From Chloroflexota bacterium (lineage in GTDB: Bacteria; Chloroflexota; UBA11872; VXOZ01): a stretch of 64,000 nucleotides of DNA. Below are positions 34,167 to 57,246 of the stretch, piece by piece; positions within the stretch are counted from its first letter, which is position 1, and every line of letters starts with the position of its first letter. A program made the position numbers and the translations under genes. Location of the stretch: NCBI GenBank assembly GCA_963662335.2, contig CAXXVD010000001.1, forward strand, positions 160,001-224,000. Reading direction: 5' to 3'. The notes under the pieces are model-generated. The model saw only the letters and a program-made list of their open reading frames with translations. It ran no database searches and had not been told where the DNA came from.

Positions 34167-34478
34167 GTGCTGCATCCAATCGTTAGTAAGAGGGCCACCG
34201 CAGTAGAACGGCTCTGCCGCCGCTACCGTGTCCGGCGGCTTGACCTCTTTGGTTCAGCCGCGACGCGCCAGGACTGGACTGAAGCGAGCGATCTCGACTT
34301 TCTCGTGGAGTTCGAACCGCTGCCGCCAGGCGTTTATGTCAACGCATACTTTGGTTTGTGGGAAGACTTGCAGCAGCTTTTCGATAGGCCGGTGGATCTG
34401 GTAGTCGAGTCAGCCATCAAGAATCCCTACTTCTTGGAATCAGTCGAGGCAACGAGGACGCCCCTCTATGAGACGTGA
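34167..34478 (+). CDS. Minimal nucleotidyltransferase (MntA-like antitoxin)
   Basis: 'LFGSAA...SDLDFLVEF...RPVDLV...IKNPYF' MNT motifs. Confidence 0.88.
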   Translation: MLHPIVSKRATAVERLCRRYRVRRLDLFGSAATRQDWTEASDLDFLVEFEPLPPGVYVNAYFGLWEDLQQLFDRPVDLVVESAIKNPYFLESVEATRTPLYET

Positions 34479-39776: not shown

Positions 39777-40032
39777 AAACTCGTCAAGCCTAAGTCTCCG
39801 AAACGCCCACACCCGCAGTATACTCACTTTGGCGCCACTTGCGGTAGTGGGAGTAGACGCGGTTGTGATTGGGAAAGCAAACAGGCACGTCCTGAAACCC
39901 CACTTGTTCGTCAGATCACTCCATGTCTCCACAAACTGTGCAAGGATGATATAATCCTGCCTGGAATGTAGGGTTGGTAGACGCCTCACATTCTACCACG
40001 CAGGGTTTTGCCAATTGGAAGATAGGTACGCT

Positions 40033-41403
40033 ATGACGACTGTCAACAGTCGCAGCCCTGGGCTGACTGGGGCCCTGGAAGAATTGCAGGACGACTTGGA
40101 AGACCTCGAGCAACTCTTCATCCGCCAGGATGAAACCGCTCGCCGGTCCTTACGGCGCTTGGAGGAGGACGGAGAGGACCTGGCGCGGTTGGCGTCCATG
40201 ATTCCAAAGTGGCAAGAGGAGGTGGACGTCTTCAGGACCCTGCGCTTGGATGATTCCGAGATCTTTCATTCCAATTTCCTCGCCTGGCTGCTGCGCCCTG
40301 AAGAGAATCACGGCCTCGGCGATTACTTTCTCCAGGAGTTTCTTGCCGAAGTCGGCGCCGCCCGCGCCGTTGGCGCCGGCGCCCGGATGAGCACCACGGT
40401 GCGCCGGGAGCAGAATATCGAGCTTGACGGGGGAAGCGGCCGGTTGGACATCTGCATCCTCAATGAGCAGGCCGGATTCCTGTGCGCGGTGGAAAACAAG
40501 ATATGGGCATCGGAAAGCGGAAATCAACTGGCCTACTACCGGAAGGCGCTCAGGGAGCGTTACCCAGACTACACGATTCTCCTGGTGTTTCTCACGCCGA
40601 GTGGAAACAGCCCTGAAGACGCAACGGAAAGGGACTACTGGACTACTTATGACTACTCGCGCATCCGGCAAATCCTTGACCGGACAATCGAGGCGAAAGG
40701 CAACTCGGTTCACGAGGACGTTGCCGCCGCGCTACGTCAATACTCGATCACATTGAGGAGAAATATCGTGCCTGAAGTCAGCGACGACATACACAAGCTG
40801 GCCCGCAAGATCTATCGGAAGCATAAGAAGGCCATCGATCTGATAATCGAGCATCGGGAACAGTACGAGCCCAACTATGTCAAAGAGGGATTCCCCATGG
40901 TGCGCGAGGCGGTCAGCAAGCACGAGGAATGGAAGGAGATCCAGTGCAACTATCCGCATGCCCGGTTTGTCTCCGCCACTTGGGACCGGTACGAGGCGCT
41001 CAATACTGGCATTTTGCCTTACAAACTACTGTACTTTCACGTGGGGGTCACCAACGACGGGGCGGATCTGTCGCTGATATTCAACAAGAGTGGCCCTGAC
41101 GACCTGAAGAAGAGGCTATTCGACTGTGTCGCGGCAAACCCCTCGATCTTCGAGGGATCGCTGCCGGGATACGTCAAAGACGACTACTTCGGGCTGCCCT
41201 TTGGGGTGAGCATACTTGAGAGTTCAGACTACGAGCACTGGTATGACGAGGAGAGGATTCGCAAGGCCATTTCTGACAGACTCGAGGCTTTCTCCAAAGG
41301 CCAGTTCCCTAAGGTCAACAAAATCGTCCTCAATTGCTTGGAGGAGTACCGGAGCGAAGAGGCTCAGTCGGTGGACGGCGAAGAAGCGGAACCTTCCGCT
41401 TGA
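40033..41403 (+). CDS. PD-(D/E)XK nuclease family protein (PDDEXK_4-like)
   Basis: 'EIFHSNFLAWLLRPEENHGLG', 'RREQ', 'RLDICI', 'VENKI', 'NQLAYY', 'VFLTPSG'. Confidence 0.85.
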   Translation: MTTVNSRSPGLTGALEELQDDLEDLEQLFIRQDETARRSLRRLEEDGEDLARLASMIPKWQEEVDVFRTLRLDDSEIFHSNFLAWLLRPEENHGLGDYFLQEFLAEVGAARAVGAGARMSTTVRREQNIELDGGSGRLDICILNEQAGFLCAVENKIWASESGNQLAYYRKALRERYPDYTILLVFLTPSGNSPEDATERDYWTTYDYSRIRQILDRTIEAKGNSVHEDVAAALRQYSITLRRNIVPEVSDDIHKLARKIYRKHKKAIDLIIEHREQYEPNYVKEGFPMVREAVSKHEEWKEIQCNYPHARFVSATWDRYEALNTGILPYKLLYFHVGVTNDGADLSLIFNKSGPDDLKKRLFDCVAANPSIFEGSLPGYVKDDYFGLPFGVSILESSDYEHWYDEERIRKAISDRLEAFSKGQFPKVNKIVLNCLEEYRSEEAQSVDGEEAEPSA

Positions 41404-52161: not shown

Positions 52162-52200
52162 CCGCGAGCGGCCGCTTGAGTAGACCATTGTTGCACGGGT

Positions 52201-52580
52201 ATGACCGTAGCGCGGGGGCTTGTCCCCCGCTCCGCGTCGCATGGATCCCGGCCTGCGTCGGCTTGACGGTGCTGTCAGCGGAATCGACGGTATTATCGGC
52301 GGGCATGACCGTAGCGCGGGGGCTTGTCCCCCGCTCCGCGTCGCATGGATCCCGGCCTGCGTCGGCTTGACGGTGGTATTAGCGGAATTGACGGTAATAC
52401 CGGCGGGTATAACCGTAGCGCGGGGGCTTGTCCCCCGCTCCGGGTCGCATGGATCCCAGCCTGCGCCGGAATGACGGTGGTATTAGCGGAATTGACGGTA
52501 ATACCGGCGGGCATGACCGTAGCGCGGGGGCTTGTCCCCCGCTCCGGGCCGCATGGATCCCGGCTTGCGCCGGAATGACG
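52201..52580. repeat. Tandem array of 104 bp units (BIME-like), 3 full plus 1 partial
   Basis: Units start at 52201, 52305, 52409 and 52513; each has GTAGCGCGGGGGCTTGTCCCCCGC plus TGGATCCCGGC.TGCG.CGG..TGAC. Confidence 0.9.
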
Positions 52581-52663
52581 GAAACGCTTGCGGCAACAGC
52601 GGCGGCGGTGCTGTCCGTTCTAACCGGGCGCGTTCAGGATACGTCACACATGAGAGAGGCACC

Positions 52664-53473: not shown

Positions 53474-53503
53474 TTGACAACCAGGCATACTTTGCGCTAT
53501 ACT
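53474..53503 (+). promoter_or_regulatory. Sigma70-type promoter
   Basis: TTGACA-N18-TATACT, 40 bp upstream of the uridylyltransferase start. Confidence 0.65.
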
Positions 53504-53543
53504 ACATTGGCAGCGTATCTCCTCTCACGGAGCACCCTCTCCC

Positions 53544-54434
53544 ATGGCGCAGCCCTCCCATGTTTCCAAGGCCGTCATTCTCGTTGCCGGTCTCGGCACC
53601 CGCTTGCTCCCGGCCACCAAGTCCCAGCCCAAGGAGATGCTGCCCGTCGGCCGCAAGCCGGTGGTGCAGTACGTCGCGGAGGAAATGGAACAAGCCGGCA
53701 TCAACCAGATTCTCTTCGTTACCGGCCGCAAGAAGAGTTCCATCGAAGACCACTTCGACCGTGATCCCGATCTGGAAGAGCGCTTGGCGGACGGCGACGA
53801 TTTGTCGCTGGGGGAGAAACTGCCAAACTTCGATACCGTGCTCCACGTTTTCTACACGCGCCAGAGCGTGCAAGCCGGACAGGCCGACGCCGTGCGCCTC
53901 GCCCGCGAGTTCGTGGGGGACGATCCTTTCGTGGTGGCCTTTGGCGATACCATCATCAAAGGCGGCAATCTGCTCAAGCGCATGATCGACAGCCACGCGC
54001 AGAGTGGCGCGGCGTGCACGGTAGCCGTGGAACAGGTGCCGCCGGAAGATGCCCATCGCTACGGCGTCGTGATGCCCAAAGACGGTCTTGAAAGCGAATT
54101 CCCTATCCAGGGCATTGTAGAAAAACCGCCGCGCGGCGCCGAGCCAAGCAACTTCGCCGTGGTGCCGCGCTACGTGATGAACCGCGAGATCTTCGAGGCG
54201 ATCCGGCTCACCTTGCCCGGCAAGGGCAACGAACTCTGGCTGGCCGACTCCATCGAAGTGCTCATCAAACAGCAGCAACCGGTGCAGTGCGTTGCCCTGG
54301 CCCCGGACGAGACGCGCTACGACATCGGCAACTTCGAGACGTACTTCAAGGCGTTCATCGACTTCGCGCTCTCTGACGAAAAGTACGGCTACCTGGTGCG
54401 CCAACACCTGCGGCGCAAGGCGGCAGCGCTTTAG
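53544..54434 (+). CDS. galU: UTP--glucose-1-phosphate uridylyltransferase-like nucleotidyltransferase
   Basis: 'AGLGTRLLPATKSQPKEMLP', 'IEDHFD', 'IVEKP', 'RYDIG'. Confidence 0.82.
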   Translation: MAQPSHVSKAVILVAGLGTRLLPATKSQPKEMLPVGRKPVVQYVAEEMEQAGINQILFVTGRKKSSIEDHFDRDPDLEERLADGDDLSLGEKLPNFDTVLHVFYTRQSVQAGQADAVRLAREFVGDDPFVVAFGDTIIKGGNLLKRMIDSHAQSGAACTVAVEQVPPEDAHRYGVVMPKDGLESEFPIQGIVEKPPRGAEPSNFAVVPRYVMNREIFEAIRLTLPGKGNELWLADSIEVLIKQQQPVQCVALAPDETRYDIGNFETYFKAFIDFALSDEKYGYLVRQHLRRKAAAL

Positions 54435-54570
54435 TTGCGATAGGAACCCCTTGCGCCAAGCGGTCAAGCGGGCACAATAAATCCCCCTCTCCCCCAGGGA
54501 GAGGGGAGAAAGCAGACTGGTCTCAATGGCCGTCTGCCGGCCGCTTACAAAAGTGAACACTGGCGTCCTG

Positions 54571-54646
54571 TTCGTCATTCCCGCGCACGCGGGAATCCAC
54601 CGACTGCGCGGCAAAGATGGATTCCCGCGTGCGCGGGAATGACGAA
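54571..54646. repeat. Palindromic element TTCGTCATTCCCGCGCACGCGGGAATCCA...TGGATTCCCGCGTGCGCGGGAATGACGAA
   Basis: Perfect ~29 bp inverted arms. Confidence 0.85.
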
Positions 54647-55746: not shown

Positions 55747-55798
55747 AGACGGTCTTTAACGGCCTATGTCTGGCCGGCGGGGCTGAAAGGAGATTGCA

Positions 55799-56188
55799 AT
55801 GGCTACCAAGAGTGCGTTCATCAGCTTCGACTACGACCATGATAACGACCTACGGTGCAACCTCGTAGCGCAGGCCAAGAAACCTGATTCGCCATTCAGC
55901 ATCACGGACTGGTCTGTGAAGGAACCATTTGACGAAAAGTGGCGGGAGAAGGTGCGAGACATCATTGAGAGAACTGACCTTACCATTGTAATCTGTGGGG
56001 AGCATACGCACCAAGCCAAGGGCGTGGAAGCGGAAGTGACGATGGCGCAGCAGGCAGGAAAACCGTACTTCTTGCTTAAAGGCCGCAGGAACAAGACATG
56101 CGCGCGCCCAAAGTCAGCCCCTAAAAAGATGAAAATCCACCCCTGGACATGGCCCACCTTGAAAGAGCTTATTGCTAATCCGAAGTAG
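55799..56188 (+). CDS. TIR domain protein, ThsB/MTH538 (DUF1863)-like
   Basis: 'AFISFDYDHD', 'DWSVKEP', 'IVICGEHT', 'GVEAEV' (catalytic-Glu position), 'KPYFLL'; AAAGGAG RBS. Confidence 0.85.
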   Translation: MATKSAFISFDYDHDNDLRCNLVAQAKKPDSPFSITDWSVKEPFDEKWREKVRDIIERTDLTIVICGEHTHQAKGVEAEVTMAQQAGKPYFLLKGRRNKTCARPKSAPKKMKIHPWTWPTLKELIANPK

Positions 56189-56191
56189 GTT

Positions 56192-56704
56192 ATGGATAAG
56201 CAAGCGCGAGAATCCGTAGTGCACCAGTGTGAGGAAACCTACGGCGGTTCTTTCCATGTGGATCTTCTTGATCAGTACAAAGTCTACGTACAGTCCGCCG
56301 AGCAAGTCAGCGCCCGTCGTGTCGCGGCAAACCGCTTTATGCTAACCATCAACGCCGCGCTGGTTGCGCTGTACGGGCTACAATCCGCCAGTTTTGGCCA
56401 GGGCTACTGGACGCTGCTCATTCCGGTTATAGGGATCCCTGTATCTGTGCTGTGGTACCTGATCATCAAGTCACACGCTGATCTGAATCGCATCAAGTTT
56501 GATGTGATTCACGAACTTGAGCAACATTTGCCAGCAGCGATGTACAGGTATGAGTGGACGATGGCTGAAGAAGGGCAGGGCAAGACCTACCGCGCGGTGA
56601 CCAACCTAGAACGATGCGTACCTATCCTGTTTGCCGTACTGCATATTGCCCTAGGAGTTGTAATGGTCCTGGCAATCGTCGGCGTAATGAATTGGACAGA
56701 ATAA
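56192..56704 (+). CDS. Small 3-TM membrane protein (resembles RipA/8xMP-type oligomeric membrane proteins), putative TIR-linked effector
   Basis: 'LLDQYKVYVQSAEQVSARR..ANRFMLTIN', TM 'LLIPVIGIPVSVLWYLII', 'LNRIKFDVIHELEQHLP...YEW', C-terminal TM; 3 nt after the TIR stop. Confidence 0.7.
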   Translation: MDKQARESVVHQCEETYGGSFHVDLLDQYKVYVQSAEQVSARRVAANRFMLTINAALVALYGLQSASFGQGYWTLLIPVIGIPVSVLWYLIIKSHADLNRIKFDVIHELEQHLPAAMYRYEWTMAEEGQGKTYRAVTNLERCVPILFAVLHIALGVVMVLAIVGVMNWTE

Positions 56705-56724
56705 CCACCGCATTAGGAAAATAG

Positions 56725-56976
<252 letters not shown>

Positions 56977-56985
56977 ACATTCACT

Positions 56986-57123
56986 ATGCGATTCAAGCTA
57001 GACGAAAACCTGCCGCTCCAGCTAGAGCGTCTGTTTACGGAAGCCGGCCACGATGCGGTCACAGTCCTCGACGAGGGGCTTGGCGGCGCGGCAGGAAAGC
57101 GCAAGACCCGTCTATTCACATAG
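56986..57123 (+). pseudogene. Truncated DUF5615 PIN-like toxin
   Basis: Translates MRFKLDENLP...AGHDAVTVLDEGLGGAA, then runs into the rpoD terminator and stops at 45 aa; lacks the 'LVTLD.DF' part. Confidence 0.75.
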
Positions 57124-57130
57124 ACGGGTC
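57105..57130 (-). terminator. Hairpin, probable rpoD terminator
   Basis: GACCCGTCTA-TTCACA-TAGACGGGTC, a 10 bp perfect stem downstream of rpoD. Confidence 0.6.
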
Positions 57131-57246
57131 ATCCGGTTCTAAGATTAGCTCTGTTGCCGACCCGCGCTGAGTTCTGGCGAGAGCCGGAATTTCGGCAATC
57201 TCAGCCACTAGCAGCAACCGACTGCTGACAGCTTAGCTGGAGGTCT

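Follow-up and report, generated by a model that had tools for sequence, protein, structure and literature searches.

Thoeris anti-phage systems pair TIR proteins with effectors of different kinds. Twenty-nine putative types have been catalogued and eleven of them verified (Yirmiya et al., bioRxiv 10.64898/2025.12.03.692087; all statements on the types given here refer to the main text). In types I and II a ThsB-family TIR protein, often in several copies, stands beside one effector, which is ThsA with SIR2 and SLOG domains in type I and a transmembrane (TM) protein with a Macro domain in type II; both follow an abortive-infection logic, and the output of type II lies in the membrane. The effectors of type IV are caspase-like proteases. 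SLOG and Macro domains are absent from the effectors of three further verified types: ThsF (DUF2270) of type V has three TM helices and was modelled as a heptameric channel with positively charged pockets between the protomers, the effector of type VII is a SLATT protein and that of type X an ion channel (10.64898/2025.12.03.692087). Type V is experimentally anti-phage, with 3' cyclic ADP-ribose (3'cADPR) as signal. Here we describe a two-gene operon on a 64,000-nucleotide stretch of a Chloroflexota-like genome (hereafter the window), in which the gene of a stand-alone TIR protein is followed by that of a small membrane protein of the 8xMP family (Pfam PF24838). An initial annotation had proposed this pair as a new Thoeris-like system of atypical, sensor-less architecture. 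A conserved operon with Thoeris-like genomic hallmarks was indeed found, the claims of novelty and of an atypical architecture were not upheld: a TIR protein with a small sensor-less membrane effector is by now an established design and no longer unusual, because the verified types V, VII and X use such effectors (10.64898/2025.12.03.692087).

The window pair is most likely a defence module with an effector family that is not named among the verified Thoeris types in the main text of the catalogue. From the sequence evidence we consider it rather probable that the pair works as a Thoeris-type system: the TIR protein would make a signal derived from nicotinamide adenine dinucleotide (NAD+), and an oligomeric membrane effector would respond to it. 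The operon presented the following features (window positions):

55787-55792, plus strand: ribosome-binding site AAGGAG, 6 nt 5' of the TIR start codon, read from the sequence
55799-56188, plus strand: thsB-like gene of the stand-alone TIR protein (129 amino acids, ATG start), identified by the list of open reading frames (ORFs), Pfam ThsB_TIR, PADLOC ThsB1, structure model and Foldseek
56033-56035, plus strand: codon of E79, candidate catalytic glutamate of the TIR protein, from conservation and alignment to BcTir
56192-56704, plus strand: gene of the 8xMP-family membrane protein (170 amino acids, ATG start), putative effector, from Pfam PF24838 and structure model
56327-56389, plus strand: predicted TM1, residues about 46-66, moderately hydrophobic, from model and hydropathy
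56408-56470, plus strand: predicted TM2, residues about 73-93, from model and hydropathy
56618-56686, plus strand: predicted TM3, residues about 143-165, from model and hydropathy

The TIR gene ends with the stop codon TAG at 56186-56188. Because only 3 nt separate it from the ATG of the 8xMP gene, the two genes form, as judged from this spacing, one translationally coupled operon; the ORFs and their arrangement were those of the initial annotation.

The TIR protein passed the Pfam model ThsB_TIR (PF08937) with 38.5 bits against a cut-off of 21.2 (residues 7-91, profile 1-91 of 100). Its AlphaFold2 model, with a predicted local distance difference test value (pLDDT) of 88.8, has the five-stranded alpha/beta TIR fold, and the top Foldseek matches were BcTir (8FZ9; E 1.8e-7, template modelling score 0.75), the SARM1 TIR and the ThsB structures 9b7d, 8wcf and 6lhy. 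PADLOC matches were weak (ThsB1, E=3e-7; PDC-M50B, E=6e-6), including weak matches to the ThsA model (STALD, E 0.0004 and 0.04). STALD and SLATT reportedly go back to Burroughs et al. 2015 (NAR). The motif GVEAEV, in which a catalytic-type glutamate had been noticed before, corresponds to residues 75-80; the conserved glutamate is E79, not E77. E79 was kept in 99% of 79 aligned TIR sequences and was invariant in a cleaner alignment of 49 sequences (A3). The protein thus presents, as is general for Thoeris, a TIR domain with a conserved putative catalytic glutamate. E79 is the candidate for this residue, and we take its position to be the catalytic one of TIR NADases, since it aligned with E82 of BcTir (phmmer E 0.0035, about 22% identity), which is placed at the inhibitor-binding site in the BcTir paper (PDB 8FZ9). 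BcTir, the closest solved structure, is as described there likewise a minimal stand-alone TIR protein (about 130-140 amino acids) of a two-gene anti-phage operon; it is paired with a soluble glycosidase-TPR protein and not, as in the window, with a membrane protein. The layout of the BcTir/Tpr operon is equivalent to type VIII Thoeris (TIR and TPR/CMP-hydrolase).

The partner of the TIR protein was unambiguously affiliated to 8xMP, as had been suspected (125.7 bits, cut-off 30, E=1.4e-36, profile 1-134 of 136), and like the ThsB_TIR match this is far beyond chance; for the name RipA, suggested along with it, we found no basis in the literature. Pfam calls PF24838 the 'Octameric membrane protein family', and the octamer is implied by this name alone. 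The family comprises 2430 representatives at 50% identity (E<=0.001; 1247 at E<=1e-10) in bacteria and archaea, and PF24838 was matched by all 52 sequences of our alignment A1, the window protein and 51 relatives. The AlphaFold2 model (pLDDT 91.6) has helices at residues 21-66, 73-110, 117-127 and 136-163, and together with hydropathy it confirms the three hydrophobic helices seen earlier; TM2 and TM3 are strongly, TM1 (about residues 46-66) only moderately hydrophobic. The extramembrane segments hold 11 lysine and arginine residues on the predicted cytoplasmic side and 0 on the outer side. Since all 11 fall into the two predicted cytoplasmic segments, the predicted topology is N-terminus in and C-terminus out. 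Across the 52 diverse proteins Q28, Y29, S40, R42, R43, W88, N99, K102, F103, E110, L113, P114, E121, W122, E140 and P144 were invariant or nearly so. By sequence position most of these residues border the membrane at its cytoplasmic face, and the predicted topology places the conserved charged ones in the cytoplasm next to the membrane.

In contrast to the effectors of types I and II, the 8xMP protein lacks SLOG, SIR2 and Macro domains: Pfam yielded only PF24838 at E<=1 and PADLOC no match, and a ThsA-type effector gene in the pair was not recognized by PADLOC either. The earlier statement that the protein lacks a SLOG or Macro domain is therefore correct. Searches for a solved structural relative gave none (best Foldseek E 1.5, phmmer against the PDB E 0.5). 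A search of the ESM Atlas that excluded PF24838 returned scores of at most 0.81, which are leads at most, among them one cluster with 13% PycTM. The closest design among the verified types is found in type V (ThsB and ThsF), which shares with the window pair the two-gene TIR operon and the small three-TM effector without SLOG or Macro domain (main text of 10.64898/2025.12.03.692087). In contrast to 8xMP, the type V effector is a DUF2270 protein (PF10028), and this family was matched neither by the window protein (E<=1) nor by the 51 relatives (E<=0.02). In type VII (ThsB and ThsH) a TIR protein is coupled to a TM effector that, as in CBASS SLATT, is thought to oligomerise on a nucleotide signal, according to the same text. 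SLATT and 8xMP have a helix-TM-TM layout of the N-terminus in common, but 8xMP differs by a third TM helix and by conserved motifs of its own, and any homology is tentative. Neither the window protein nor any of the 51 relatives reached the SLATT gathering score, and only one relative had a match at E<=0.02: residues 25-97 of relative P0244, the region of the helix, TM1 and TM2, matched SLATT_1 (profile 6-77, E=0.0029) with 18.1 bits, below the cut-off of 26.3. An S_4TM match, again in one of the 51 relatives, had 18.2 bits and lay below its cut-off of 26.9. The precedents of types V, VII and X, as described in the catalogue, count in favour of a Thoeris-type function of the pair.

The linkage of both genes was followed in 80 related loci (L005-L084), which were obtained by a genome scan with a 12-sequence 8xMP alignment and whose 8xMP proteins had 44-77% identity. 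In 78 of them the 8xMP gene was directly preceded, in the same orientation, by a homologue of the window TIR gene, most often at a distance of 3 nt, and the other two also had a TIR gene in the operon: one (L070) codes for a 491-amino-acid TIR_2 protein two genes upstream of 8xMP, in the other (L073, 1062-4507) a DDE transposase gene separates a truncated TIR gene from 8xMP. The conservation of the gene pair, an expectation attached to the initial annotation, was thereby confirmed, and the adjacency of TIR and effector gene in one operon is a general trait of Thoeris. A transposase of the Mutator family was seen between two TIR genes in another locus (L017, 1646-3987); in both loci the module has been broken up by an insertion sequence. 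The 80 loci belong to many phyla and groups, including Chloroflexota, Latescibacterota, Actinomycetes, Nitrospirales, Planctomycetota, Gemmatimonadota, Spirochaetes, Alpha-, Gamma- and 'Delta'-proteobacteria and one metagenome-assembled genome (MAG) of a Thaumarchaeota. The 8xMP protein of this MAG (L078) shares 58% identity with that of the window, pointing to an inter-domain transfer or an error in MAG binning. Plasmids were sampled with 10 contexts out of 31 matching records, representing more distant homologues (<41% identity). Eight of the ten contexts had a TIR-coupled 8xMP gene, seven with a stand-alone TIR protein, including two of haloarchaea (L088 and L090), and one with a TIR-NB-ARC-WD40 protein. 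The latter is a STAND protein of 1215 amino acids, whose gene directly precedes 8xMP on the Rhizobium leguminosarum plasmid NZ_CP050092.1 (L091, 1-4108). In a phage collection the single match was again the sequence of a Haematospirillum plasmid.

A predicted complex of TIR and 8xMP (alignments A1 and A3) had a score of 0.03 against a mark of 0.32; the prediction was run without controls and speaks neither for nor against binding. If the TIR protein bound and gated 8xMP by protein-protein contact, a diffusible messenger would not be involved. Such a direct contact is quite unlikely in our view. It would fit the tight translational coupling and the absence of a recognisable ligand-binding domain from 8xMP, and the identities of TIR and 8xMP proteins are correlated among the loci (Mantel r=0.48, no value as high in 1000 label permutations; without the fragmented loci L066 and L071). 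This correlation is equally explained by co-inheritance; it documents only the joint inheritance of the two genes and not, by itself, their co-evolution. The invariant candidate catalytic glutamate argues against direct contact and for an enzyme activity, and the diversity of the TIR partners, from ThsB_TIR proteins to the 491-amino-acid TIR_2 protein and the 1215-amino-acid STAND NTPase, fits a shared small-molecule signal more easily than a conserved interface. As weak evidence in the same direction, the search for longer fused forms of 8xMP yielded no TIR-8xMP fusion. The three database proteins found (P0391-P0393) all have an 8xMP domain joined to the N-terminal domain of HsdR; for these, read-through between neighbouring genes or an error of gene calling is more likely than a true fusion.

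Multiplication of the TIR gene, in Thoeris known as several thsB genes for one effector, was observed as well. Two full-length TIR genes in tandem precede a single 8xMP gene in six of the 80 loci (L009, L016, L026, L028, L059 and L074); the tandem proteins are 45-62% identical and both have the glutamate. In one locus (L042, 2336-4489) the complete TIR-8xMP pair is present twice in a row, and an HsdR gene comes after the second copy. On the Clostridium perfringens plasmid NZ_CP065633.1 (L087, 995-3308) the genes are arranged as caspase-TIR-8xMP-TIR, which points to TIR sensors used jointly by two effectors, and a caspase-family gene (Peptidase_C14) is also part of the TIR-8xMP cluster on a Paenarthrobacter plasmid (L001, 1-3462). 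The sharing of the cluster with a caspase-family gene, which resembles the type IV effector, is counted for the Thoeris reading on these two plasmids. The roles of the two proteins may also be reversed, with the TIR protein as NAD+-depleting killer and 8xMP as sensor, anchor or regulator, e.g., of a membrane perturbation during phage entry. For unverified TIR pairs the catalogue itself concedes in its Limitations that the TIR protein may be an NAD+-depleting effector (10.64898/2025.12.03.692087), and the window TIR protein is minimal, has no sensor domain and is translationally coupled to its partner. Several observations make this reversal unlikely, however: divergent tandem TIR proteins with a single 8xMP protein in six loci fit several sensors reporting to one effector, the Rhizobium TIR-NB-ARC-WD40 protein has its own sensor and switch and leaves 8xMP as the output, and the clustering of 8xMP with caspase-family genes suggests interchangeable or parallel outputs.

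A reading mediated by a signal is favoured because 8xMP is paired with very different TIR proteins, because of the tandem TIR proteins and because of the invariant glutamate. We infer a mechanism in which the module, acquired by horizontal transfer, would serve in abortive infection. Upon phage infection the minimal ThsB-like TIR protein would use E79 to convert NAD+ to a second messenger derived from ADP-ribose. The 8xMP protein would be inserted in the inner membrane with a cytoplasmic N-terminus, three TM helices and the C-terminus outside, probably as a ring-shaped homo-oligomer. The messenger would be bound by the conserved juxtamembrane cytoplasmic cluster of R42, R43, N99, K102, F103, E110, E121-W122 and E140, without participation of a separate SLOG or Macro domain. 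Thereupon 8xMP may open or disrupt the membrane, so that the cell would be halted before phage release.

The genomic neighbourhood of the relatives was surveyed within flanks of 4 kb by clustering of the flanking ORFs and annotation of the cluster representatives. A same-strand hsdS gene lies upstream in 41 of the 80 loci and hsdR downstream in 30; both were present in 22 and at least one of them in 49 loci, whereas hsd genes are missing beside the window copy. For HsdM the count within the 4-kb flanks was 11 of the 80 loci. Examples are an HsdS at L055:42-1907 and HsdR at L064:4483-8121 and L018:4498-7644. Between hsdS and the TIR gene lie -28 to 3178 nt, and in eight loci hsdR starts no more than 10 nt from the 8xMP stop codon. 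The same slot holds other defence-type genes, namely Kiwa KwaA/KwaB, SoFic, PDC-M02A/B, PDC-M24B and PDC-S45. The TIR-8xMP pair is a habitual cargo of a variable slot in type I restriction-modification (R-M) operons, and the slot between hsdS and hsdR looks like a hotspot for defence genes. The variable distances to hsdS and the intervening cargo fit such a hotspot better than a dedicated partnership. The location among defence genes, a general feature of Thoeris, is thus present in the 49 relatives and absent from the window.

The anticodon nuclease PrrC, which is encoded inside the EcoprrI hsd operon, is an example of defence cargo in a type I R-M operon and in this respect like the relatives of the window pair. 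A more specific reading, improbable when all its parts are taken jointly, makes the pair a distinct Thoeris type outside the eleven verified ones. The arginine, lysine, glutamate and tryptophan residues of the juxtamembrane cluster would then lie between the protomers of a ring and read the TIR product without a dedicated nucleotide-binding domain, and the signal might be other than the known cADPR isomers. The trigger of the sensor-less 129-amino-acid TIR protein would be the condition of the type I R-M complex encoded in its usual operon. As a second-line guard similar to PrrC, the pair would fire when anti-restriction proteins of the phage disable the R-M system.

In the window the pair has other neighbours. 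The following features adjoin it:

55750-57200, no strand: inserted block of low GC content with four ORFs, limits approximate, from the composition profile
56749-56976, plus strand: DUF433 gene, antitoxin-like, intact, 75 amino acids (Pfam DUF433, E=2.4e-23)
56986-57123, plus strand: truncated DUF5615/PIN-like toxin gene, ORF of 45 amino acids (Pfam DUF5615, E=3e-6, profile positions 1-35 of 110)

The guanine-cytosine (GC) content over the TIR-8xMP pair is 0.50-0.55 versus 0.60-0.68 in the flanks, in accord with the AT-richness noted before. A GHMP kinase with a galactokinase signature (Pfam) is the upstream neighbour, and beyond the DUF433 and DUF5615 ORFs follow rpoD and dnaG on the minus strand. 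The decayed toxin-antitoxin (TA) module described in the initial annotation between a sugar kinase and rpoD was recovered, with an intact DUF433 gene and a truncated DUF5615 gene. According to tblastn with full-length relatives from three loci (L045, L054 and L062), the homology of the DUF5615 remnant is limited to residues 1-36 of about 117 (56986-57093). An inverted repeat at 57097-57138, with 19-nt arms of 84% complementarity and a 4-nt loop, lies exactly at the end of the DUF5615 homology, about 110 nt past the minus-strand rpoD stop codon, and may be the rpoD terminator named earlier. The flanks showed no direct repeats indicative of an insertion site, tRNA and Rfam matches were not obtained in the window, and promoter and terminator scans remained at chance level. 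The neighbours rpoD, dnaG and GHMP kinase occur in none of the 80 related loci, from which we conclude that the TIR-8xMP pair is mobile. The operon in the window is real, intact and horizontally acquired.

In eight of the 80 loci a DUF433 homologue follows 54-424 nt past the 8xMP stop codon, with a full-length DUF5615 gene beside it. This recurrent TA pair, which adjoins the TIR-8xMP pair in the window as well, belongs to the arguments for a function outside immunity, as an addiction or TA-like or membrane-stress module of mobile elements in which the TIR protein neutralises or regulates a holin-like membrane toxin. The occurrence on plasmids beside partition and TA genes and the position of the window copy outside any defence island fit such a module as well. 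We consider it very unlikely in view of the 49 loci where the pair, along with further defence genes, is part of a type I R-M operon, of a TIR protein that is affiliated to the ThsB family and keeps its putative catalytic glutamate, and of the tandem multiplication of the TIR gene, which is typical of immune sensors.

Several points weigh against the Thoeris-type reading of the pair. TIR-8xMP pairs are known from genes and models alone. The 80 loci represent the closer relatives and not the whole family of 2430 representatives, and in two of the ten plasmid contexts, from Leptolyngbya and Streptomyces, no TIR gene was present among the adjacent genes scanned. The association with defence islands is a bare count without a genome-wide background statistic; the window pair itself has housekeeping genes as neighbours, and the nearest PADLOC candidate matches in the window are at least 15 kb away from it. 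The ThsB score of the TIR protein in PADLOC is modest, and a phage-sensing domain is not obvious in this protein of 129 amino acids. No model of PADLOC 2.0.0 or NCBIfam is matched by the 8xMP protein, and ligand binding by 8xMP is conjectural because it has no recognisable nucleotide-binding domain. PADLOC, which had been proposed as a check of the initial annotation, gave the weak ThsB1 and PDC-M50B matches of the TIR protein, and no single system model was matched by both genes.

The terms '8xMP' and 'PF24838' are absent from the main text of Yirmiya et al., whose effector lists stand in figures and supplements outside our search (10.64898/2025.12.03.692087). The pair may already be among the 18 untested putative Thoeris types or be identical to type IX, whose effector the main text does not describe. 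A literature search, which left most subscription papers uncovered, found no description of a TIR-8xMP system.

Other observations in the window concern regions apart from the operon. The PADLOC candidates mentioned above are PDC-S09 at 34167-34475 (103 amino acids, E 7e-32) and PDC-S26 at 40015-41400 (462 amino acids, E 9e-71); the other PADLOC matches among the window proteins were shared-domain matches to housekeeping genes. A tandem repeat with a unit of 104 nt (52196-52581, 3.7 copies, 93% matches) is intergenic, upstream of a creatininase-like gene, and yields several spurious overlapping ORFs with repeated peptides. An ORF on the minus strand (53502-54614) has similar peptide motifs, which hints at dispersed copies of this repeat.

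The instance in the window is an ordinary, horizontally acquired cassette of the defence type in a Chloroflexota-like genome, one of hundreds of close copies. If the pair is anti-phage, 8xMP would add another, abundant effector family to Thoeris. It would then be another very small membrane protein that reads an immune signal of nucleotide origin although it has no classical sensor domain, and such a decoding would be useful for understanding how nucleotide signals gate membrane assemblies. The habitual cargo slot in type I R-M operons offers an easy way to search genomes for additional defence genes, and the position of the pair in this slot raises the question of a functional link between R-M and TIR signalling.

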